A stretch of DNA of 64,000 nt from Saprospiraceae bacterium (GTDB taxonomy: Bacteria; Bacteroidota; Bacteroidia; Chitinophagales; Saprospiraceae): NCBI GenBank assembly GCA_965277445.1, contig CBDICY010000016.1:441604-505603 (forward strand), in the 5' to 3' direction. Positions 4,630 to 36,748 of the stretch are shown piece by piece. Below the pieces are notes generated by a model. The model worked only from the letters and a program-made list of their open reading frames with translations, made no database searches and had not been told where the DNA came from. Numbering within the stretch: position 1 is the stretch's first letter; the number at the start of each line of letters is the position of its first letter. A program made the position numbers and the translations under genes.

Positions 4630-5520
4630 ATGAAAATCACTCAATTGTTAGTCGTCATCTGTTTAATCGCCACTTCTTTAACCGCTCAAAAAAATGGAAA
4701 TGGGCAATTAAAAACAAAATCCATTTCACTCGCCGATTTTTCCGAAATCCGGGTAAACTTTCCGGTCACCGCCACCATTGATTGCGGCACAACAACTGCT
4801 TTAAGCATGACCACCGACGACAATTTATTTGAGCATATAGGAATAGAAGTGGAAGACGATATTTTATACATTCAACAAAAAGGTTGGGTGGAAGCAACTA
4901 AAGTAGAATTGACCATTGGCGCGCCCAATTTGAAGCGATTACAAGCAGGCGGCTATGGCAATTATACCGTAAAAAATATAGCTGCCAATGAATTTCGAGT
5001 GACCAATAATGTCGGACTAGTCAAATTATTTGGCAAAGCGAATACCTTAAGATTTGGTATTGAAACAGGAACAATTGATGCAACGGGATTAGTTGTTCAA
5101 GAAGTGTACGCCAATATTTGGAGTCATGGAAAAGCTAAGGTCAATGCGGTTCAATTATTAGATGGAAAAGTAAAGAATGGGGGCGATATTATTTATACCA
5201 ACGCACCTGTAAAAAATCGCATTAAAATAAAAGGTGATAGTCAAGTCTATTCTTCGGCGGAAGCTAAGGCAGCGATCAAAAAAATAGATTTTATCGACTT
5301 TAAACTATTCAATAACAGCGGCACAAGAATCCAAGCGTATGTGAAAGGGCCTAGAGGTCAAAAATTTAGTTATGGCTTCCCTTTAAATCCATTACAAAAG
5401 CGCAACAAGCATTGGCCAGTTGGCAGTAAAGTTTATAAAGTGAGTAAAGTAGGCACTCGAACTTTATTGGCGACGATTGAAGCGGATAATGCAGATAGTG
5501 TGGTGAAATTATTTGATTAG
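4630..5520 (+). CDS. Secreted protein, possibly head GIN/DUF2807-like beta-rich adhesin domain
   Basis: Signal peptide MKITQLLVVICLIATSLTAQ followed by a repetitive beta-strand-like sequence (GTIDATGLVVQEVYANIWSHGKAKVNAV...). The family assignment is tentative. Confidence 0.5.
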   Translation: MKITQLLVVICLIATSLTAQKNGNGQLKTKSISLADFSEIRVNFPVTATIDCGTTTALSMTTDDNLFEHIGIEVEDDILYIQQKGWVEATKVELTIGAPNLKRLQAGGYGNYTVKNIAANEFRVTNNVGLVKLFGKANTLRFGIETGTIDATGLVVQEVYANIWSHGKAKVNAVQLLDGKVKNGGDIIYTNAPVKNRIKIKGDSQVYSSAEAKAAIKKIDFIDFKLFNNSGTRIQAYVKGPRGQKFSYGFPLNPLQKRNKHWPVGSKVYKVSKVGTRTLLATIEADNADSVVKLFD

Positions 5521-5887: not shown

Positions 5888-6142
5888 TTAAACAAAATTA
5901 CCTACAAATAAACCCATAAAAGTCCATGCCAATACGCCAATAATGATGAATAGAAAGGTACTAGAATAATTGATAACTTCCGTTTCTTTTTCATTGACCA
6001 ATTCTTTTGGGTTCGTTTCAGCTTCGTTAATTTCCTCCATCGTTGCATCACTTACCACTTTTAAAGCAGCACTCCAGAAATAGATAAAATAACTGACTCC
6101 TGCGGCAATAATTAGGTATAAAAGGGCTAGTAGAAAGTTCAT
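5888..6142 (-). CDS. Small membrane protein (2 TM helices), hypothetical
   Basis: Hydrophobic N- and C-terminal segments with an acidic central loop. No family recognised. Confidence 0.4.
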   Translation of the reverse strand: MNFLLALLYLIIAAGVSYFIYFWSAALKVVSDATMEEINEAETNPKELVNEKETEVINYSSTFLFIIIGVLAWTFMGLFVGNFV

Positions 6143-25123: not shown

Positions 25124-26128
25124 TCATTCCTCATAATGCTTATTAGCCCGCCGCAATTTATTCCAAATTCGATCCTTCAAAGCTTGTGGTTTCAAAACAA
25201 TCATCGCATCTCCAAACCCCAAAATCTCTCGTTCCAATTCATAATTAATTTGCACTGTAATGGAAATGATGATCCCTTTATCCTGCCGTTCAATCAATTC
25301 TTGACTAGGATGCAAAGGCTTGGTCAGCACATAAGGCGCATTGCTATGATAAACAAATAGGTGAATAATCTGAGGGCTTAAAGTCTCACTAACGGTTACA
25401 CCAATAACATCTTGGTAAAAATTGCTTAAATCATAATTGGTATTTTCTCGAAAAGGGATATTAGACGTTTCAATGGCTTTCATTCTATCCAATGCCAAGG
25501 TCATCATTCTTGGCGCACCTTGTTTGATGCCTAGTAAAAACCAGCGATTGCGGTATTCTTTTAATAAATAAGGAAAGAAGATAATTTCGCCAGGTTGTCG
25601 AGCCTTAAAGGATTGGTAAGTAATGGATAAAGTTTGCTTTTTCTGAACTGCTTGATAAATGGTATCTAAGTATTCCAAGCCTTGCAAACCTTCATTTTTT
25701 TCAAAATCAATAATGCGTTCTTGTTTATTTTTAGAAGTATAAACCTTGTCTTCTAATTTTTGCACCATGCCACTCAATTCCTGAAAATGCGAAAAGCCTT
25801 TGAATTGCTTTAATATTTCTACGACTTCCGTCAGCCGATTTAAATCTTGGTCGGTCAATGGAATATTAGTGATGCTATATTCAGGGTCTTCGTAAGTGTA
25901 ATATTTTTTATCCACCACAATAATCGGCGCATTATAGCCCAATTTATCCGATCGCATGAGTTGAATATCGGCTTGGACGGTTCTTTTACTCACACCTTTG
26001 TCGATGCCTTCATATTCGTAAAGGGTATCAGAACAAGCATTAATGAGGTCGTCTAAAGTCCATTTTCGGAAGCGATTGCGGAGACAATTGTCGATTGTTC
26101 GGAAGCGGATGAGTGCGTTTTTATTCAT
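25124..26128 (-). CDS. WYL-domain transcriptional regulator (wHTH + WYL + WCX)
   Basis: N-terminal HTH (LIRFRTIDNCL...) and a central WYL-type block NRWFLLGIK. Length 334 aa. Confidence 0.85.
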   Translation of the reverse strand: MNKNALIRFRTIDNCLRNRFRKWTLDDLINACSDTLYEYEGIDKGVSKRTVQADIQLMRSDKLGYNAPIIVVDKKYYTYEDPEYSITNIPLTDQDLNRLTEVVEILKQFKGFSHFQELSGMVQKLEDKVYTSKNKQERIIDFEKNEGLQGLEYLDTIYQAVQKKQTLSITYQSFKARQPGEIIFFPYLLKEYRNRWFLLGIKQGAPRMMTLALDRMKAIETSNIPFRENTNYDLSNFYQDVIGVTVSETLSPQIIHLFVYHSNAPYVLTKPLHPSQELIERQDKGIIISITVQINYELEREILGFGDAMIVLKPQALKDRIWNKLRRANKHYEE

Positions 26129-26485: not shown

Positions 26486-26848
26486 TCATTTGGCGGTTAC
26501 TTATGATTTGTTATTCTTTAAAGGAAAATTGGTTTTTTGAAAATAATTACAAACTTTAATAATTTTTTATTTTGGTTTTAAGTATTTGATAGTCAGGGTT
26601 TTAGTAAAAGGATTGGCGATTTTGTAATAAATAGTTTTACGAAAAAACAAAAAAATATTTAACTACGCAAATATACTGCGCACTACCTTCCCAACTTTGT
26701 ATCATCAAACAACAAAAAAGAAATCTACTTTAATAAAAAAGATTTTTTTTTACTCGTTTGGAACTTTATTCAACAAATTAGAATTATTACTCCTCGGAAA
26801 GACCAAGCATTAAAAATCTTGCCTTTCCGAAACCAAATACCAACAATC

Positions 26849-28369
26849 ATGAAATTCAATTTATTAAAAAGAAAGACGAAGCAAATTACTAATTATCAAG
26901 GTGCAAAGGCATGGACGTTAACACCTGAATTAGCATTGTACACAGCAGTTGTGACCGCTAGTTTGACCAATAAATTTTATGAAAAAGAAGGGGAGCGATT
27001 GGCAAGAATCAAACAATTGATTGAAAAGTGTGACCCTACTTTTGTAGCCAAATTAGCCGTTTACACTAGAGAAAAAATGTATTTGCGGTCGATTCCAATT
27101 GTGTTGGTTGTAGAGTTAGCGAAGCTTCATAGCGGAGATAGTTTGGTGAGAAATACCGTGGCAAGAGTCGTCAAAAGAGCCGACGAAATCATGGAATTAT
27201 TGGCTTACTACCAATTTGCGAATGATAGAAAAGACACCAAAAAATTGAACAAATTGTCGAAGCAAATCCAAAAAGGATTAGGTGTCGCTTTCAATAATTT
27301 TGATGAATATCAGTTTGCTAAATATAACCGAGCAGGAACCGTGACCTTAAAAGATGCTTTGTTTTTAGTTCACCCAAAAGCAAAGGATGAAGTGCAACAA
27401 GCGATTTTTAATAAGATAGTGAAAGATACCTTGACCACACCTTATACTTGGGAAGTGGAGTTGTCCAAATTAGGGCAAGAAAAATATCCTTCTGCTACTG
27501 CTAAAGCAAAAGCAGTAACTGCCAAATGGGAAGAATTGATTGATAGCGGAAGATTGGGGTATATGGCATTGATGAGAAATTTGCGAAATATTTTGCAAGC
27601 AGATGTGAGTGCTGACCATATCAAAAAAGTAGCGCGTTTTTTAGGCGATGCAGAAAAAGTGAGCCGTGCGAAACAATTGCCTTTCAGATTCTTATCAGCA
27701 TATAGAGAATTAGAGCAATTGAAATTGCCTTATGTGAATTACTTATTAACAGCATTGGAAAAAGCGGTGAAGGCAAGTGCTAAAAATATTAAAGGATTTG
27801 GTTTGAAAACCAAGGTAGTTTTAGCCTCGGACGTATCAGGTTCTATGTATTCCCAAATTTCTCCAAAAAGCAAAATTCAATGCTATGACATCGGATTAAT
27901 GTTGAGTATGTTGATGAGAAATCGTTCTAAAAATGTCTTCACAGGAATTTTTGGCAATACTTGGGAAATGATGAATTTACCAGCGGATAACATTTTAGCC
28001 AACACGATGAAATTGCGAAAAATGGAAGGTAGAGTTGGTTATTCAACGAACGGCTATAAAGTGATTAACGACTTAATTAAGCGAAAATTGAAAGTTGATA
28101 AAGTCTTAATCTTTACCGATTTGCAATTATGGGATAGTCGAAATGACGGAAATAGTTTGCAAAGTTCGTGGGCAGAGTATACCCAAAAGTATGCGCCAAA
28201 TGCCAAAATTTATTTATTCGACTTACAAGGCTATGGACAATCGCCTTTGCGAATTCCATCCAGAAATGTCCACTTAATTGCTGGCTGGTCGGATAAAGTG
28301 TTTGAGGTATTGGAGGCTATTGAGAATGGGGGAGATGCTATTACTGAAATCAACAATATTACTTTGTAA
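26849..28369 (+). CDS. rsr: Ro60-like ribonucleoprotein (TROVE domain + C-terminal vWA)
   Basis: TROVE-like helical repeat N-terminal region and a C-terminal vWA with the MIDAS motif DVSGSM. Size (~506 aa from MKFNLL) matches bacterial Rsr. Confidence 0.85.
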   Translation: MKFNLLKRKTKQITNYQGAKAWTLTPELALYTAVVTASLTNKFYEKEGERLARIKQLIEKCDPTFVAKLAVYTREKMYLRSIPIVLVVELAKLHSGDSLVRNTVARVVKRADEIMELLAYYQFANDRKDTKKLNKLSKQIQKGLGVAFNNFDEYQFAKYNRAGTVTLKDALFLVHPKAKDEVQQAIFNKIVKDTLTTPYTWEVELSKLGQEKYPSATAKAKAVTAKWEELIDSGRLGYMALMRNLRNILQADVSADHIKKVARFLGDAEKVSRAKQLPFRFLSAYRELEQLKLPYVNYLLTALEKAVKASAKNIKGFGLKTKVVLASDVSGSMYSQISPKSKIQCYDIGLMLSMLMRNRSKNVFTGIFGNTWEMMNLPADNILANTMKLRKMEGRVGYSTNGYKVINDLIKRKLKVDKVLIFTDLQLWDSRNDGNSLQSSWAEYTQKYAPNAKIYLFDLQGYGQSPLRIPSRNVHLIAGWSDKVFEVLEAIENGGDAITEINNITL

Positions 28370-28445: not shown

Positions 28446-28468
28446 AATGAAACAAAAGACATAAGAAA

Positions 28469-28592
28469 AGTGCCGTAGAACAACGTTACTTCGACTCTTA
28501 ATCGGGAGGTTGTAGGTTCGAGTCCTACTATTGCTGGCAACAGCGATATAGCTCAATTGGATAGAGCGCCATGAACGTTATTCGATTTTTGC
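28469..28592 (+). ncRNA. Permuted tRNA-like unit U1 (candidate YrlA-type Y RNA)
   Basis: T-arm gtagg-ttcgagt-cctac, closed acceptor hairpin tattgct-ggcaac-agcgata, ta, D-arm gctc-aattggata-gagc, then a tail. Confidence 0.55.
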
Positions 28593-28679
28593 CTTCTCTT
28601 TTTACAGGATAACAGGATTATGGAGGATTCACAAGATTTAGTAGGACGTAATTTCTATCCTGTAAATCTTGTAATCAAT

Positions 28680-28757
28680 AGTGCCGTAAAGCAATGTTAC
28701 TTCGCTTTGATTGGATCTGTGGGTTCGAATCCCACCATGTCATTGCTTGCTTTTGCC
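28680..28757 (+). ncRNA. tRNA-like unit U2 (head + T-arm gtggg-ttcgaat-cccac + cattgct; no D-arm)
   Basis: Same head motif. It looks like a tRNA 3'-portion. Confidence 0.4.
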
Positions 28758-29040
28758 TATTGGCTTTTGAAAATAAAAAAATGATAATAAAAAGGGTGTC
28801 GTAAAATAGGCTTACTTCGATTTACTTGCGATCACTTGATTGTGGCTTTTATGGAGTTTTGTTTTCCACATCAAAAAGATAGACAAAAAGAAACAGAAAA
28901 TGCTCACTTGTTGGGTAATCCAAAATTGACTATTTGAATTTAACCCCTTTTTAAGAAAAAGAGGTGTCGTCTAAAAGTCTTACTTCGCTAGAAAATCGGA
29001 ACAAACTAGACTTTTAAAATGGTTACCCTCTTTCTAAAAT

Positions 29041-29114
29041 GCTTCCGTGGACAAACTGGTTAAGTCGCTGCTCTTTCACAGCAGAGATTGCGGGTTCGAG
29101 CCCCGTCGGGAGTA
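29041..29114 (+). tRNA. tRNA-Glu(TTC), no encoded CCA
   Basis: Acceptor gcttccg/cgggagt (two G-U pairs), 3-bp D-stem gac/gtc, anticodon arm ctgct-cTTTCac-agcag, T-arm gcggg-ttcgagc-cccgt, discriminator A. Confidence 0.8.
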
Positions 29115-29287
29115 CATCTACAGGATGACAGGATTATGCAAGATTTACAGGATGAAAGTAGGACGTAAATGGAATTAGCAGAATTCTGTTAACTTAGAGA
29201 AATCATACTATATTTTTGAAGTATAGTTGGAAAAAGATGTGTTGTATTTTGTTAAGTTAGTAGAGTTTACTATGTTAGTAGCTTTTA

Positions 29288-29677
29288 ATGAGAAAACTAA
29301 CAAAAATGAAATACGAAAAAATGACGGGAGATATTATTGGTGCAGCCTTTAAAGTACACAATAAACTAGGGTATGGTTTTAAAGAAAAACACTACCAAAG
29401 AGCGATGATTATAGAATTAGAGAAATTGGGATACCATGTAGAAGAAGAGCTGTATTTGAATATTTACTATGACGATAAAGTAATAGGAAAAGATAGAGCC
29501 GATTTATTTGTAAATAAAACCATTTTAGTAGAATTGAAAACACTAAAAGAGTTAGCTAAAAATGATGAAATTCAATTGGTTAATTATTTAAATGCTACAA
29601 GAGTAGAAATAGGGTTATTAATCAATTTTGGGCAGAGTGTAACCGTTAAAAGAAAATTTAGAGATTACAAAAAATGA
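29288..29677 (+). CDS. GxxExxY family protein
   Basis: TGDIIGAAFKVHNKLGYGFKEKHYQRAMIIELEKLGY...VNYLNAT. This family typically sits inside tRNA/rRNA clusters in Bacteroidota. Confidence 0.8.
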   Translation: MRKLTKMKYEKMTGDIIGAAFKVHNKLGYGFKEKHYQRAMIIELEKLGYHVEEELYLNIYYDDKVIGKDRADLFVNKTILVELKTLKELAKNDEIQLVNYLNATRVEIGLLINFGQSVTVKRKFRDYKK

Positions 29678-29746
29678 TGACTTGATTTTATAAATAGGAA
29701 ACCTATCCTGTAAATCTTGAAAAATCTTGTCATCCTGTAAGAGAAG

Positions 29747-29871
29747 AGTGTCGTAGAGCAACGTTACTTCGATTGTCACTCGGGAAGTTGCAGGTTCGAA
29801 CCCTGCCATTGCTAAATATAGTAATGTAGTTCAATTGGATAGAACACCTTGTACGTTATTCGGTTTTTACC
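29747..29871 (+). ncRNA. Permuted tRNA-like unit U5
   Basis: T-arm gcagg-ttcgaac-cctgc, acceptor hairpin cattgct-aaatat-agtaatg (one G-U), ta, D-arm gttc-aattggata-gaac, tail ccttgtacgttattcggtttttacc. Confidence 0.55.
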
Positions 29872-29903
29872 TTTTCTTTTTTGAGCATATAAAAAAAGTC
29901 AAT

Positions 29904-29988
29904 AGTGCCGTAGAGCGATGTTACTTCGATTCAATTGGTTATTATAGGTTCGAATCCTATTCGTTTATAGCACATTGTTCGTTTTTGC
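29904..29988 (+). ncRNA. tRNA-like unit U6 (head + T-arm atagg-ttcgaat-cctat + tail; no D-arm)
   Basis: Head agtgccgtagagcgatgttacttcga, tail ttgttcgtttttgcc. Confidence 0.4.
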
Positions 29989-30013
29989 CTATTGAGTTTT
30001 AAAGACATTAGAA

Positions 30014-30145
30014 AAGTGCCGTAGTAGCATCCTACTTCGATAGGAATTTGGAGGTTACAGGTTCGAGCCCTGTCATTGCTGAGGAATTGGCAATGTAGTG
30101 CAAATGGATAGCACACCAAACAAAGAAGATACTGCGACTTTTGCC
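30014..30145 (+). ncRNA. Permuted tRNA-like unit U7
   Basis: T-arm acagg-ttcgagc-cctgt, acceptor hairpin cattgc-tgaggaattg-gcaatg, ta, D-arm gtgc-aaatggata-gcac, tail ...cttttgcc. Confidence 0.55.
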
Positions 30146-30184
30146 TTTTCTTTTTTGAAAATTTTAAATTGAAAAATTATTAAC

Positions 30185-30259
30185 GGTCTATTGGGGTAAT
30201 GGTTATCCTCCTCGGTTGTCTCCCGAGTGATATGAGTTCGATTCTCATATAGACCGCCA
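30185..30259 (+). tRNA. tRNA-Asp(GTC) with encoded CCA
   Basis: Acceptor ggtctat/atagacc, D-loop aatggtt, anticodon arm ctcgg-ttGTCtc-ccgag, T-arm atgag-ttcgatt-ctcat, then G-CCA. A T at position 37 is unusual. Confidence 0.75.
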
Positions 30260-30338
30260 AACAATTTACAAGATAACAGGATTAATTAGATTAACAGGAT
30301 ATAAGAATCTTGTAAATCTTGTCATCCTGTAAAACAAG

Positions 30339-30506
30339 AGTGCCGTAGAATATAGCGTTACTTCGATTCCAGATCCGTAGGTCGTGGGTTCAAATCCCTC
30401 CATCGCTGCTGTAACACAACTCTCCGAGTTGTGAAATTTTATAAAAAACAGCGATGTAGCTCAGCGGTTAGAGCAACGTAACAGTCGCTTTTCGAATGTT
30501 GCCTCC
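30339..30506 (+). ncRNA. Permuted tRNA-like unit U8 (acceptor hairpin has a long loop containing an 8-bp sub-hairpin)
   Basis: T-arm gtggg-ttcaaat-ccctc (one mismatch), acceptor catcgct...(cacaactc tcc gagttgtg)...agcgatg, ta, D-arm gctc-agcggtta-gagc. Confidence 0.5.
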
Positions 30507-30712
30507 TGTTTTTCTCTTTTAACTTCAACGGGAAGTGCCTTGCAAAGAGGTTCGGTTCGATTCCGAGAAAGAGAACAAGTGCTTTGCACAAAAATGACAA
30601 TCACTTGGTAATGATAGACCAGATGAGGGTTTCTGTATAGCCTCGTAGTGTTCGCCCAGTTGGGTGGAATATGCTGCTACTTTATTGAGTATTGTAACCA
30701 AAATTTGTGTGT

Positions 30713-30955
30713 CGGAGGTTCGATTCCTCCTTCTGGTAATTTACCAGAATAGCTCAGTTGGAAGAGCAACAAATTTCACCCTGTAGGTCGAGGGTTCGAC
30801 TCCCTCCTTAATCTTTGGGATTAAGTAGTTCAGTTGGTTAGAACGACAGATTCTGAATTTCCAGGTTCGAGTCCTGGTTCCGATACGTCGGAATGGCGGA
30901 ATTGGTAAACGCAATGGACATTAAATCCATCATTCTTTGAAGGAGAAAGCCACTT
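30713..30955 (+). ncRNA. Three contiguous permuted tRNA-like modules U9-U11; U11 ends in a tRNA-Leu-like D-arm, anticodon-like hairpin and variable-arm-like hairpin
   Basis: U9: ggagg-ttcgatt-cctcc, ttctggt-aattt-accagaa, ta, gctc-agttggaa-gagc. U10: gaggg-ttcgact-ccctc, cttaatc-tttgg-gattaag, ta, gttc-agttggtta-gaac. U11: ccagg-ttcgagt-cctgg, ttccgat-ac-gtcggaa, tg, gcg-gaattggtaaa-cgc, atgga-cattaaa-tccat, cttt-gaaggag-aaag. Confidence 0.55.
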
Positions 30956-31288
30956 CTTAAAAAATAGGCTAATAACGTTAATGCAAAGGCATTTCTGAGT
31001 TTGTTGCTCTTCGGAAATAACAAACTGATTCGGTAGTTGCTTTGAAGGATTTAGGATACCGTATTGGCTATTTTAGCAGCCTGTTTTTAATTGAAAATGT
31101 TTACCTGCCGATAGGTAGGTAAAATTTAAAAATCAAAATCGAAGAGTAGGACTTCGGTTCTAACTTGAATGTATTGGATTTTTAACTCCATTTTTGTAAA
31201 AATAGCCTGTTTTTGTAAAAGATACTTAATAAATTTTCCGCTGCTATTGAATGGAAATGCGGATGCATTATTTTACAAAAGATTAGAA

Positions 31289-31405
31289 AACTGGTAGAAA
31301 AGCCTTCAGGCTTTCCTGTTCAAGACCTTTAGGTCTGTCATTTCATAAGTAGATTCTTTCTAGCCTAAAGGCTAGTGACGGGAAAGCCTGAAGGCTTTTC
31401 TACCG
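31289..31405. repeat. Multi-hairpin repeat element, copy B (inverted relative to copy A at 18988-19134)
   Basis: 24-bp outer stem ggtagaaaagccttcaggctttcc/ggaaagcctgaaggcttttctacc, with inner hairpins gacctttaggtc and tagcctaaaggcta. Confidence 0.7.
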
Positions 31406-31451: not shown

Positions 31452-32549
31452 ATGAAACGTGTACAAATTTATGCTTACAAAGTAGGATTAGTGTTTAGAA
31501 ATGGAAATTTTCTAAAAGTATTGACCGAAGGAAAATATTGGGTCAGATGGGGAGATGAAGTACAGGAATTTAATCTAAATATTCCTTTTATGGCCCCTTG
31601 TGAACTTAATGTTTTATTGGAAGATAAGACATTGGCGGAGCTATTGAACGTCATCATTGTAAAGGATAATGAAATTGGAATGGTCTTTAAAGAAGGCATT
31701 TTTCAAAAGGTATTAATCCCAGGAAGATACGCTTATTGGAAAGGCATTGTCAAATATGACTTCCCTATATTTGATTTGAATGAACTGGAAATTCCAGCAA
31801 GTATTGATAAAAAGTTACTGACCAAACCAAGTTTGTATGGATTCGTTCGGACCAGTATCGTTGAATCTTATGAAGCAGGTTTATTGTTCGTAGAAGGGCA
31901 ATTTGTCAAGGAATTATCTGCGGGCACTTATCGTTTTTGGAATAACGATAAAACAATCAATGTCCTAAAAACCGATTTAAGAGCGCAGCAAGTAGAACTA
32001 GCAGGTCAAGAAATATTGACGAAAGACAAAGCGGCTTTGCGGATTAATTTCTTTGCTCAATACCAAGTTATTGATGTGGAAAAAGCATTGGTAGCTACCA
32101 ATAATTTCAGCAAACAACTTTATATTTTAATTCAGTTGGTGCTACGAGAATATGTAGGCACATTGACTTTGGATGAATTGTTGGCAAAAAAAGAAACAGT
32201 ACAAGGCTATGTCTTAAAAGCGATTGCAGAAAAAGCAGCAGATTTAGGCGTAAAAATCACCGATTGCGGTATCCGAGACATTATCCTACCTGGAGAAGTC
32301 AAAGATATTATGAATCAAGTCTTGGTTGCTGAAAAAAGAGCGCAAGCTAATATTATTACCCGTAGAGAAGAAACAGCTTCTACGAGAAGTTTGCTCAATA
32401 CGGCTAAATTGATGGAGGATAATGAGATGTTATTCAAGCTCAAAGAAATGGAATATGTGGAAAAGATTGCGGAGAAAATTAATACGATTTCTGTTTCTGG
32501 CGGCGGACAAATAGTCGAACAATTGAAGACTATTTTTACGAGAAATTAA
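31452..32549 (+). CDS. SPFH/Band-7 domain protein with three N-terminal partial repeats
   Basis: C-terminal SPFH core (LREYVGTLTLDELL...RAQANIITRREETAS). The N-terminus has three copies of G[LM][VL]F..G.F.K.L..G.Y..W. Confidence 0.75.
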   Translation: MKRVQIYAYKVGLVFRNGNFLKVLTEGKYWVRWGDEVQEFNLNIPFMAPCELNVLLEDKTLAELLNVIIVKDNEIGMVFKEGIFQKVLIPGRYAYWKGIVKYDFPIFDLNELEIPASIDKKLLTKPSLYGFVRTSIVESYEAGLLFVEGQFVKELSAGTYRFWNNDKTINVLKTDLRAQQVELAGQEILTKDKAALRINFFAQYQVIDVEKALVATNNFSKQLYILIQLVLREYVGTLTLDELLAKKETVQGYVLKAIAEKAADLGVKITDCGIRDIILPGEVKDIMNQVLVAEKRAQANIITRREETASTRSLLNTAKLMEDNEMLFKLKEMEYVEKIAEKINTISVSGGGQIVEQLKTIFTRN

Positions 32550-34310: not shown

Positions 34311-34605
34311 GATTGTTTATTTGTCATTATTGAGAATAGAGAAAAGAGATTTAAACTGGAATTTTGTCAAGGTACTGCTTGTTTTTACTGACCTTAGCCG
34401 TTTTATCTTTATTCTCCCAATGAAATGGTCTCTAATTTCTATTTTATTGAATACTTCCAATACAGCAATAATCCTACTAAAAACCATTTCAAGCAACCTA
34501 TAAACGTTTATTTTTAAAAAATAATTATAAAAAATGAAGGTTTTATTTAACTGCGCAAAATAATTGCGTAGAGGTGTCTTAACTTGCAATCAAAATTAAG
34601 GAACA

Positions 34606-35622
34606 ATGAATATTTCAGCATTAGAAAAGATGATTACCGCAGGTTATGTAAAAAAGCAAAAGCATCCAACTGCGGATTTGTTAATTTATAATTATTCTGA
34701 AACGGCACAGTTTGAGCGAGTTTGGAATGAAGTGACTTTGCAATGCCGAGGTTTGATTTTAGATGGAGAGGGTAGGGTAGTAGCACGTCCGTTTCCAAAG
34801 TTTTTTAATTTAGAAGAGTTGGTTAATAAACCGATTCCAAATTTACCCTTTGAGGTGTATGAAAAAATGGATGGTTCATTAGGGATTAGCTATGTGGTAA
34901 ATGAAGAAATTTTTATAGCCACTAGAGGATCATTTACTAGCGAGCAATCGGTGAAAGCCAATGAATTATTGAATACTAAATATGCTGCTGCCAAAGCCCA
35001 AATGAATCCAGCTGTTACTTATTTATTTGAAATTATTTATCCCGAAAATCGGATAGTATTGGATTATGGACCTCAAGAAATCTTGGTTTTATTAGGCATT
35101 ATAGAAACGGCAACCCGAAAGGAATTGCCTTTAGTGGATATTGGTTTTCCAGTTGTTAAAAAATACAATGGGGTAAAAGATATTCATCAATTAAAAGCCT
35201 TAGCTTATGATAATAAAGAAGGTTTTGTGATTCGTTTTGCTAATAATTACCGTATCAAAGTGAAATTTGAAGAATATGTGCGGATTCACCGAATTATCCA
35301 GCAAGTATCGAGCATCACCATTTGGGAAAATTTAATGGCTGGACAACCTTTTACAGAAATATTAGAACAAGTACCTGATGAATTTTATACTTGGGTAAAA
35401 GTGACCAAAGCAAAATTAGAAGCAGATTATTTAGTCATTGAAAATATTGCGAAAAGTGAGTATAAAGAATTAGCAACACGGAAAGAAACGGCTTTGTATT
35501 TTCAGACTTGTCAATATCCAAAAATTCTTTTTTCTATGTTGGATGGGAAGGATTATTCGGAGACGATTTGGCGGTATATTCGACCTGTTTATGAGCGTCC
35601 TTTTACACACAGGATAACATGA
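34606..35622 (+). CDS. ATP-dependent RNA ligase (Rnl/T4 RnlB-type nucleotidyltransferase, pfam09414-like)
   Basis: Motif I KMDGSLG (KxDG), motif IV EGFVIR, motif V RIKVKF. Length 338 aa, comparable to Rnl2-type ligases. Confidence 0.75.
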   Translation: MNISALEKMITAGYVKKQKHPTADLLIYNYSETAQFERVWNEVTLQCRGLILDGEGRVVARPFPKFFNLEELVNKPIPNLPFEVYEKMDGSLGISYVVNEEIFIATRGSFTSEQSVKANELLNTKYAAAKAQMNPAVTYLFEIIYPENRIVLDYGPQEILVLLGIIETATRKELPLVDIGFPVVKKYNGVKDIHQLKALAYDNKEGFVIRFANNYRIKVKFEEYVRIHRIIQQVSSITIWENLMAGQPFTEILEQVPDEFYTWVKVTKAKLEADYLVIENIAKSEYKELATRKETALYFQTCQYPKILFSMLDGKDYSETIWRYIRPVYERPFTHRIT

Positions 35623-35857
35623 TTATGCTGGATTAACAGGATTTGACGAGCTAGGAGGATGAGCGAGCAAAAAAGCCCAAGAGGACTATTTTGTGAAGTG
35701 AACTGTGAAACAGGTGGGATTGCAAACGGATTCAGACGGATTGAACGGGTAGGAACGGATTTTACATGTGGTTCGTAAAATCTGTTCCAATCAGTTAAAT
35801 CTGTTCCAATCAGTTAAGAATCCTATCTATTTAAAAACCATTATTAAAACTTAAAAC

Positions 35858-36748
35858 GTGAAACAAGTTATTATATTAAGAGGCTTACCAGCTTCAGGAA
35901 AATCAACCTATGCAAAGGATTTAGTGAAAGCGAATCCAAATATGTATAAGCGCATTAATCGAGACGATATGCGAGAAATGTTAGACGGGTATCAGTTTTC
36001 AAAAAGCAATGAAAAATTTGTCAAGAAATTAAGAGATTGGTTGATTGTAGAAGCCTTACGAGATGGAAAACATGTGATTGTGGATGATACCAATTTGTCA
36101 CAGAAAAACATTAATCGCATTAATGATTTAGTCAACGGCTATAAAAAACAAACAGGGCATCAAGTAAATGTGGTGGTTAAAGAATTCACGATTGAATTGC
36201 AGGAAGCAGTAGAACGAGATGCTAAGAGAAAGCGACCTGTAGGTCGCAAGCAAATTGAAAAATTGCACCGTCAATTTTATGCACCTGATGATAAAAAAGG
36301 ACGAGGACCATATTATATGGAACAAGATAAAGCTTTGGCAAAGGCAATTATTTGTGATATAGATGGAACGTTGGCAATCATAGAAGGACGTTCGCCATTT
36401 GATGCTACTTTATGTGAACAAGATGCCTTGAATGAACCAATTGCAAATATTGTCAAGGACGAATACGCAAAAGGGACACATATCTTTTTGTTTACAGGGA
36501 GAAAGGATTCGACCAAAACACAGACCCTAAATTGGTTGAAGAAATTTGAGATTCCATTCCACGAAATCGTCATGCGAAAGCATGAAGATAATAGAAAGGA
36601 TTCCATTGTGAAAACCGAATTTTTTGAGGCGCACATCAAAGACCAGTTCTTTGTGAAATATGTCTTAGATGACCGAAATCAGGTAGTCGATATGTGGCGT
36701 TTGGATATTGGTTTGCCTTGTTTGCAGGTGAATTATGGGGATTTTTGA
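35858..36748 (+). CDS. Polynucleotide 5'-kinase/3'-phosphatase (T4 PseT-like: P-loop kinase + HAD phosphatase)
   Basis: N-terminal Walker A GLPASGKST. The C-terminal HAD motif I ICDIDGTLA and ...DDRNQVVDMWR...VNYGDF match the T4 Pnkp phosphatase organisation. Confidence 0.8.
   Translation: MKQVIILRGLPASGKSTYAKDLVKANPNMYKRINRDDMREMLDGYQFSKSNEKFVKKLRDWLIVEALRDGKHVIVDDTNLSQKNINRINDLVNGYKKQTGHQVNVVVKEFTIELQEAVERDAKRKRPVGRKQIEKLHRQFYAPDDKKGRGPYYMEQDKALAKAIICDIDGTLAIIEGRSPFDATLCEQDALNEPIANIVKDEYAKGTHIFLFTGRKDSTKTQTLNWLKKFEIPFHEIVMRKHEDNRKDSIVKTEFFEAHIKDQFFVKYVLDDRNQVVDMWRLDIGLPCLQVNYGDF

Follow-up and report, generated by a model that had tools for sequence, protein, structure and literature searches.

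The rsr locus

The DNA considered here is a 64,000-nucleotide (nt) stretch, hereafter the window, from a member of the Saprospiraceae (contig CBDICY010000016.1, positions 441,604 to 505,603 of the forward strand). It encodes Rsr, an ortholog of Ro60, whose gene (rsr; 26819..28369, plus strand) is identified by Pfam TROVE (1e-30) and vWA_Ro60 matches and likely starts at the ATG at 26849, because homologs align from residue 10-11. Further downstream on the same strand lies a gene for a Band-7/SPFH (slipin) protein (31452..32549; Pfam Band_7, 8e-28), and tRNA-like elements occupy the sequence between the two. The 2.5 kb after rsr are interpreted here, with a probability of about 0.8, as a battery of small-RNA genes of two related and already described kinds, namely Y RNAs of the Rsr type and a tRNA-like RNA associated with Band-7. 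This interpretation draws on the observed anatomy, covariation and synteny of these RNAs, and on a common operator.

Permuted tRNA-like modules

The sequence-only reading of this region had proposed at least seven units of permuted order, each with an internally complementary acceptor hairpin. Both proposals held when the window was searched with a custom scanner that seeks a T-stem of 5 base pairs (bp) with a TTCRANN loop, directly followed by a 7-nt strand able to pair with a 7-mer located 2-60 nt downstream, then TA or TG, and then a D-arm with GG. The scanner returned exactly seven matches in the 64-kb window, all on the plus strand between 28512 and 30912, and no permuted module on the minus strand; 200 first-order Markov simulations of the whole window, run at a laxer threshold of at least 6/7 pairs, gave a chance expectation of 0.64 matches on average and 4 at most. 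Each module reads on the plus strand as T-arm, closed acceptor hairpin, U8-R9 and D-arm, and every hairpin is paired at 7/7 positions (TATTGCT/AGCGATA, CATTGCT/AGTAATG, CATTGCT/GGCAATG and CATCGCT/AGCGATG in the first four modules, followed by TTCTGGT/ACCAGAA, CTTAATC/GATTAAG and TTCCGAT/GTCGGAA in the last three). The acceptor loops are 2-8 nt long, except in one module with a 42-nt insert. The 5-bp T-stem with a TTCGANT loop that had been ascribed to the units is likewise the general rule, from which the module at 30384 departs with one U-U mismatch in the stem and a TTCAAAT loop. A covariance model of the module (R1), built from 37 modules, assigns scores of 50-73 bits (E 6e-12 to 3e-18) to the seven sites, and the next-best site in the window scores 17 bits.

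The only conventional tRNAs in the region are tRNA-Glu (29041-29115) and tRNA-Asp (30185-30259), as called by ARAGORN and by Rfam at gathering thresholds; the Rfam tRNA model adds two truncated matches at threshold (29.6 and 31.4 bits). In a conventional reading, neighbouring acceptor halves pair at 2/7 and 4/7 positions, as opposed to 7/7 in the permuted reading, which bears out the earlier view that the units are unreadable as tandem conventional tRNAs. In that register, no module joins paired acceptor strands of its own to an anticodon arm, and such an arm is absent from 6/7 modules altogether. Minimum-free-energy folding of single units gave z-scores of -0.2 to -2.2, and -3.1 for the whole region of the last three modules. 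These folds are uninformative for most units, often disrupting the tRNA-like arms, and comparative evidence was therefore relied upon.

The comparison set comprised 51 genome and 48 metagenome loci encoding relatives of Rsr, mostly from Bacteroidota (Saprospiraceae, Chitinophagaceae, Sphingobacteriaceae, Flavobacteriaceae and Prevotella), which are cited below by number (L001 and so on) where they must be told apart. The modules of the window (28503-30918) lie on the same strand as rsr and within about 4 kb of it, an arrangement repeated in about 100 related loci, and R1 finds 1-4 modules just downstream of rsr in most loci. In the 37-sequence module alignment, covariation is seen in all four helices and at 7/7 acceptor pairs. 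The inner pairs of the closing stem, which were never required by the scanner, are formed in 35/37 and 32/36 sequences by four types of pair, and the Levitt pair 15:48 is C:G in 24 and U:A in 12 of 36 sequences with zero mismatches, all seven window modules conforming. A further test presupposed no acceptor pairing, in that T-arms and D-arms were found by sequence and ARAGORN tRNAs were excluded. At least 6/7 acceptor pairs were formed in 70/83 T-arm-to-D-arm units of homologous arrays, compared with 8% in a cross-unit control. Homologous arrays thus preserve acceptor complementarity, in line with the selection on the hairpin that had been proposed from the window alone.

These pairings make it very improbable that the modules are decayed remnants of tandem tRNA arrays, each joining the T-arm of one tRNA to the D-arm of the next and having no present function. 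Real arrays do occur in rsr loci (14 conventional tRNAs in L007, positions 1-1430; 11 in L014, 4090-5240; 6 in L010, 5457-6795), tRNA-tRNA junctions reach 61 bits with R1, a dimeric-tRNA artefact of which Chen et al. (2014; PMC4201824) warn, and the last of the window's modules has a Leu- or Asn-type tRNA 5' part that fits a model of origin from a two-tRNA transcript. The building blocks, too, are those of the tandem tRNA arrays of bacteria and phages. However, the pairing register of the window is shifted by half a tRNA and the acceptor strands pair only in permuted order, in about 100 loci the permuted hairpins, closing stems and 15:48 pair are all maintained by compensatory changes, and most modules are without an anticodon arm, ARAGORN calling no tRNA there. 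A decayed tRNA array is plausible as the origin of the modules, but not as their present identity. The conventional arrays of the relatives have features of their own, tRNA genes alternating one-to-one with Y RNAs in L010 and successive Ile, Met and Asn tRNAs sharing a nearly identical acceptor stem in L014.

Y RNAs of the Rsr type

The array after rsr holds eight Y RNAs (U1-U8; 28464-30508, plus strand) with a common Rsr-type head and a matching tail. Each unit starts with N7-U-G-Y-CGUAR...YUAYUUCG and ends with R-C-N7', where N7' pairs with the 7-mer before the head. Among 100 sequences, 303 heads were found, 246 of them with a matching tail compared to 35 in a shuffled control, and covariation links the head Y to the tail R (C:G 163, U:A 69, U:G 13, mismatch 1).

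The composition of the eight is graded. A full tRNA-like domain is present in U1, U5, U7 and U8, which house the modules at 28503-28573, 29781-29851, 30048-30120 and 30375-30480, respectively, and no others. U1 (28464..28598; R1 64 bits) joins the head AGAAAAG-U-GC-CGUAG to the tail GC-CUUCUCU and scores 35.8 bits with the Rfam model of YrlA, the Y RNA with a tRNA-like domain. In U5 (29742..29876; R1 65.6 bits), GU in the head pairs with AC in the tail, a compensatory change relative to GC/GC. Head and tail are paired at 7/7 positions in U7 (30010..30150; R1 64.3 bits) and at 6/7 in U8 (30334..30508; R1 62 bits), the unit with the 42-nt acceptor-loop insertion, of which homologs with a long acceptor arm exist in L001 and L191-L193. 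U2 (28675..28762) and U6 (29899..29994), each with 7/7 pairing of head and tail, hold the T-arm only, that of U2 being GUGGG UUCGAAU CCCAC with no D-arm; the stretch 29747-30003, U6 included, is 96% identical to L001. Finally, U3 (28790..28950; AAAAGGG-U-GU-CGUAA with AC-CCCUUUU, 7/7) and the short U4 (28958..29032; 7/7; a 90% identical homolog in L001) contain no tRNA-like element.

Since 78 of the 100 sequences carry 1-6 units beside rsr, a multi-Y-RNA array as such is common in Bacteroidota and less unusual than had been claimed, although the window is extreme with its maximum of eight; a comparably expanded array, with seven strong R1 matches, occurs in the close relative L191. The original assignment of all modules to a YrlA-type array next to rsr also largely stands, although it applies to the four modules inside Rsr-type Y RNAs and not to the three packed modules that follow, which lie in an RNA tied to Band-7.

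A search for mimicry of ribosomal RNA (rRNA) found no similarity to Escherichia coli sequences in U3, U4 or the 5' region of this second RNA. Relatives do have a conserved Y RNA subtype in which a sense copy of a 23S rRNA segment (TAACTATAACGGTCCTAAGGTAGCG...) stands right after the Rsr-type head, continues with about 170 nt of conserved sequence and ends in the usual tail (L001 7069-7305, L052, L003 at about 9010, L029 at about 7650, L191 at about 3030 and L193 1-70). The copy in L001 includes 31 nt that are 100% identical to E. coli 23S rRNA. The window is without this subtype, and its slot between tRNA-Glu and U5 is taken by a cassette with a PDDEXK_3 gene.

The chain RNA upstream of Band-7

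The last three modules (modules 9-11, 30705-30918) have no Rsr-type head and are spaced 1-7 nt apart in model coordinates. On sequence grounds they are assigned to an RNA of their own, about 480 nt long (30512-30995, plus strand; the chain RNA), tied to Band-7 and not to rsr. In nine other loci the conserved chain, with 1-3 modules, likewise stands directly upstream of the Band-7/SPFH gene, whether or not rsr is present. A small cloverleaf may open this RNA (30512..30575), closed by a stem of 9 bp and containing three hairpins, of which the third (UCGG-UUCGAUU-CCGA) resembles a T-loop; the sole match to the Rfam Deinococcus_Y_RNA model, at 18.7 bits, falls on this cloverleaf. There follows a two-hairpin domain of about 80 nt (30610..30690) of the form GAUGAG-hairpin-CAUAGUG-hairpin-AUAUGCUG, for which an alignment of 10 sequences predicts 16 pairs, 8 of them with compensatory change, and which is found upstream of the first module in the chain loci in common. 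Among 96 sequences (the window, rsr loci and three viral loci), a covariance model of this domain (R2) matches only the window, L001 and L050, exactly the three with Band-7 nearby. Two other identities were considered for parts of the region. AAGUGCCUUG at 30527 was rejected as a Y-RNA head of the chain, being without the CGUA and YUAYUUCG parts and not kept in L193 or L001, and a hammerhead or C/D-box k-turn at the GAUGAG...CUGA motif was dropped because the GAAA core element is absent.

Each module of the chain has its own short closing stem. Module 9 (30705..30773; R1 73 bits) combines the closing stem UUGU/ACAA, which covaries to UUGC/GCAA in L194, with the acceptor UUCUGGU/ACCAGAA. Module 10 (30781..30850; R1 67 bits) has CUGU/ACAG and the acceptor CUUAAUC/GAUUAAG, swapped yet complementary in L191 and L192 (UCCCGAU/AUCGGGA). 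Module 11 (30852..30930; R1 49.9 bits) consists of a T-arm, the acceptor UUCCGA-UACG-UCGGAA and a Leu-type D-arm, and is completed by a 5-bp anticodon-like stem (30914-30918 with 30926-30930) around a 7-nt loop, CAUUAAA. Across the chain loci, acceptor hairpins are replaced wholesale with complementarity kept, closing stems covary (UUGU/ACAA, UUGC/GCAA, CUGU/ACAG, CCAU/AUGG, CAAUCU/AGAUUG), and 8/9 loci (not L197) have a last module with a Leu-type or type I D-arm (GUU loop), a 5-bp stem and a 7-nt loop. The anticodon-like stem itself covaries (AUGGA/UCCAU vs AUAGA/UCUAU), and its loop is variable, those of close relatives being CAUUAAA, CUUAUAA, CUUCCAA, UUUAGGU, CUGAGAA and CUGUUAA.

Circularly permuted tRNA genes that are matured into tRNAs occur in the red alga Cyanidioschyzon, and module 11, with four arms including a 7-nt anticodon-like loop and with RNA ligase genes nearby, invites the thought that the modules of the window are matured likewise into working tRNAs. 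This is barely credible, given that 6/7 modules are without an anticodon arm, the loop triplet varies among close relatives, the window loop has A at position 33, the acceptor loops are but 2-8 nt long (bar the one 42-nt insert), and neither CCA nor a discriminator context is present. To our knowledge, there is no bacterial precedent for permuted tRNA genes.

The chain RNA closes with a 3' element (30931..30995) made up of a GAAG..CUUC hairpin, an A-run, and a conserved hairpin (AAUGC-AAAG-GCAUU) followed by UUCU in terminator-like fashion; this conserved hairpin and U-tract near 30995 probably mark the end of the RNA, judging from sequence. The element is kept in L191, L193 and L194, its GAAG..CUUC hairpin is divergent in L192, and the GAAG..CUUC hairpin and A-run are present in L050.

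The link to Band-7, first seen in L050, was extended by a search for homologs of the window's Band-7 protein, for which seven contigs (L191-L197) were examined. In 7/7 of these, R1 modules stand directly upstream of Band-7 on the same strand, numbering three in L191 and L194 and two in L192 and L193. Two modules are likewise present in L196 and L197 (Chitinophaga pinensis, CP001699), and one in L195, these three loci having no rsr within 5 kb on either side. In L050 (Foetidibacter), a two-module chain directly precedes Band-7, which in turn precedes rsr. L001 and L052, whose Rsr is 94% identical, retain module 9 only, and a fragment of the Band-7 C-terminus comes after it, an arrangement indicative of a deletion. 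As nhmmer searches with the 5' and 3' parts of the chain returned only the near-identical L001 and L052, the distant members were found through Band-7 gene context together with the covariance model. ARAGORN called no tRNA in the chain regions.

This unvarying position, directly upstream of Band-7 on the same strand and 300-520 nt from the start codon, would also suit a cis-acting leader of the Band-7 mRNA, be it a processing and stability signal for RNase P or RNase Z or a sensor. In L195-L197, moreover, an operator and promoter precede the chain and there is no second operator before Band-7. A leader is nonetheless distinctly unlikely as the account of the three-module chain, as the conserved hairpin and U-rich tract probably terminate the RNA both in the window (at about 30995) and in L191-L194, and L001 has retained module 9 after the loss of most of the Band-7 gene; leader and trans-acting roles are, moreover, not mutually exclusive.

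A near-perfect hairpin of about 105 nt (31296-31401) lies in the window after the chain RNA and ahead of the Band-7 start codon, and its length explains a match to a plant microRNA model on both strands. A permuted chain also occurs in a phage. Among viral contigs scanned for a D-arm closely preceding a T-arm, 89 stretches were found and 80 were searched with R1, yielding one clear chain, in L174 (IMGVR_UViG_3300039286_000350; 5300-5439, minus strand). This contig has 29 tRNA genes and a tmRNA, and its two-module chain has closing stems UCGG/CCGA and CCGG/CCGG and one acceptor capped by a UUCG tetraloop, with an extra single module at 5931-6012. The search with the Rsr protein gave two viral loci.

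Operator and RNA-repair genes

Upstream of rsr lies an operator-like motif (26664..26712, plus strand; CTACGCA-N7-TGCGCA, then a CTTTGTAT -7-type box). Its consensus, CTRCGCA-N7-TGCGYA followed after about 12 nt by CTTTGT, recurs in 75/109 related sequences, mostly just upstream of rsr, and is found upstream of the chain RNA in L195-L197 and upstream of Hen1 (Hen1-Pnkp) in L193. The window has two copies, at 26664 (rsr) and at 34552 (Rnl1). The second (34552-34600) introduces a pair of genes on the plus strand (the whole unit spanning 34552..36748), an Rnl1-type RNA ligase (34606-35622; Pfam RNA_lig_T4_1) and a PNKP kinase-phosphatase (35858-36748; HAD_PNKP and AAA_33). The gene order 3' of the array is Band-7/SPFH, Uma2, DUF6252, Rnl1-type ligase and PNKP, and by its gene content the locus is an RNA-repair neighbourhood. 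The same Rnl1-PNKP layout with the operator occurs in L191 and L194, and L195-L197 showed no repair gene over a distance of 5 kb. Elsewhere, Band-7 is followed by Hen1-Pnkp (L193, 3004-6972) or by PNKP-ligase fragments (L192, 7547-8073) in place of Rnl1-PNKP, such that the repair module is swapped inside one conserved Band-7 context.

Divergent from rsr is a gene for a regulator with Pfam WYL and WCX domains (25124..26128, minus strand). Homologs are present in 56/99 rsr loci and beside Band-7 in L195 and L197, and L196 has a WCX-domain gene. Because the operator recurs and the divergent WYL gene is conserved, a single regulon is suggested, in which the WYL regulator probably binds the operator motif. 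Being common to rsr and Rnl1-PNKP, the operator further implies that synthesis of the RNAs is probably coupled to that of an RNA ligase and an end-healing enzyme. The window has no additional operator in the interval from rsr to Band-7, and hairpins fill spacers between the RNAs, so the whole stretch from rsr to Band-7 may be a processed polycistron.

These spacers and the genes among the Y RNAs deserve description. Long ACAGGAT/ATCCTGT hairpins, similar to elements of L193 and L194, exactly fill three spacers between RNA genes and could be either processing stems of the RNase III type or a small mobile cassette. One comprises 35-nt inverted repeats (29119-29153 and 29705-29739; 29119..29739, plus strand; 91% complementary) that enclose an open reading frame of the PDDEXK_3 (GxxExxY) type (29288-29677, plus strand; Pfam 1e-36), and empty versions are present at 28603-28674 and 30265-30335 (direct-repeat families D8, D11 and D13). 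Two conventional tRNA genes are interleaved on the plus strand. tRNA-Glu(UUC) (29041..29115) is called by ARAGORN and scores 58.6 bits with Rfam tRNA, and tRNA-Asp(GUC) (30185..30259; ARAGORN; Rfam 53 bits) has the non-canonical anticodon loop UUGUCUC, with U32 and U37, identical in L191, L192 and L193, and an encoded CCA. The latter may be a spare or nuclease-resistant tRNA.

Comparison with YrlA and b7a-tRNA

YrlA was described by Chen et al. (2014; PMC4201824) as an RNA encoded near rsr, in multiple copies per locus, and its tRNA-like fold was argued from covariation of the 15:48 Levitt pair; the same study proposes a GNCGAA(N)G motif as the contact to Ro60. A crystal structure of the YrlA tRNA-like domain followed (Wang et al. 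2018; 10.1101/312249), in an account that discusses a dimeric, two-tRNA transcript as the origin of YrlA, and Y RNAs adjoining tRNAs have been reported in the literature. The Y RNAs of the window share with YrlA a same-strand position at most 4 kb downstream of rsr, a T-arm, a capped acceptor-like stem of variable length and a D-arm, a closing stem in place of the anticodon stem, 15:48 Levitt covariation, near-invariant D and T stems, a short conserved 5' motif, and the presence of several copies per locus with neighbouring tRNAs. They differ in forming an array of eight, graded from full mimic through T-arm only to neither, and in the long inverted-repeat hairpins of some spacers. Units of reduced composition have parallels as well, U2 and U6 with Yrn1 of Deinococcus radiodurans, which has a T-arm-like hairpin only, and U3 and U4 with YrlB of Salmonella, which has no tRNA-like domain; no sequence similarity connects Yrn1 or YrlB to the window Y RNAs.

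For the second kind, Burroughs and Aravind (2016), as cited in Wang et al. (2018; 10.1101/312249), described a Band-7 protein accompanied by a predicted tRNA-like RNA (b7a-tRNA), sometimes with Rsr, and YrlA as sometimes adjoining Band-7. Insofar as that citing description goes, the chain RNA matches b7a-tRNA in being a tRNA-like RNA encoded beside Band-7/SPFH among RNA-repair genes, at times accompanied by Rsr and Y RNAs, the repair link being made by Rnl1-PNKP in the window, L191 and L194 and by Hen1-Pnkp in L193. It differs in consisting of 1-3 permuted modules behind a two-hairpin domain and not of a conventional cloverleaf, and in having Rnl1-PNKP or Pnkp-Hen1, and not RtcB, as the nearby ligase.

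Several points weigh against the assignment of both RNAs to described kinds, as does the leader possibility raised above. At relaxed thresholds, six modules score 32-38 bits with the Rfam YrlA model RF02553 (E 4e-6 to 2e-4), about half the model's gathering score of 69 bits, and 4/6 alignments cover the tRNA-like core only (model positions 23/24-84/88), the other 2/6 running end to end. The head of the window Y RNAs, G-Y-CGUA-R, is similar to the 5' GNCGAA motif at which contact with Ro60 has been proposed, but is one position off the published GNCGAAN0-1G. The boundaries of the Y RNA units were inferred from stems and U-runs, and the RNAalifold structure of the small cloverleaf (25 pairs, 4 compensatory) derives from three sequences only. 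Furthermore, the citing paper ascribes to b7a-tRNA a strong resemblance to an authentic tRNA, and the permuted chain has no such resemblance. The chain RNA is most probably the Bacteroidota form of the Band-7-associated RNA. Relative to these sources, and with b7a-tRNA compared by its description in the citing paper, the new elements appear to be the split into two RNA classes and the concatenation of permuted modules with a variable anticodon-like loop, along with the number of Y RNAs in the battery, their graded composition and the common operator.

Proposed functions

In the preferred reading, each Y RNA would dock on the Rsr ring by means of its terminal N7/N7' stem, U-G-Y-CGUAR head and R-C tail. 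Four Y RNAs would present a YrlA-type mimic, with T-arm and D-arm as the tRNA elbow, a loop capping the acceptor stem, and a 3-4-bp stem closing the structure in place of the anticodon stem, and the other four would present a T-arm alone or unrelated inserts. The chain RNA is envisaged as a small cloverleaf and the two-hairpin domain, followed by three consecutive tRNA mimics that have a closing stem apiece, the last mimic keeping a Leu-type D-arm and a complete anticodon-like stem-loop. Within an RNA-repair system, the RNAs would then probably be cofactors of the scaffold proteins Rsr and Band-7, or decoys. As handles, the tRNA-shaped modules could bring tRNA-recognizing proteins, such as repair or modification enzymes and tRNA-cutting toxins, to the Rsr ring or a Band-7 assembly; as decoys, they could compete with real tRNAs for toxins. 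Hughes et al. (2020) suggest an anticodon nuclease as a possible target of inhibition by the YrlA domain.

A bolder proposal is that the chain RNAs form an undescribed class of multivalent tRNA mimics for Band-7/SPFH proteins, in which 1-3 permuted tRNA bodies on a conserved two-hairpin base may act as a bait or sensor for anticodon nucleases. The rapid change of the terminal loop between close relatives, with its stem kept by compensatory changes, may point this way. Cleavage or occupancy of the bait may, via the WYL regulator and the common operator, induce Rsr and its Y-RNA battery, and with them the spare non-canonical tRNAs and the Rnl1-PNKP repair enzymes, and each Y RNA may be an adaptor that imitates a different RNA of the translation machinery, the 23S-copy subtype of the relatives included. 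Taken jointly, these propositions are unlikely.

The role of the tRNA-like domain in bacterial Y RNAs has been a question since 2014, and the Band-7-associated tRNA-like RNA has been a prediction to date. The locus offers a natural experiment on both, placing a graded series of Y RNAs beside one Rsr together with a structurally distinct tRNA-mimic RNA at Band-7, and a common operator connects both kinds of RNA with the genes of an RNA ligase and a kinase-phosphatase. For the proposed origin of YrlA from dimeric tRNA transcripts, the concatenated modules are concrete living examples. Because several relatives are cultivable, among them Chitinophaga pinensis and strains of Pedobacter, Flavobacterium and Niastella, the partners, processing and induction of these RNAs are directly testable.

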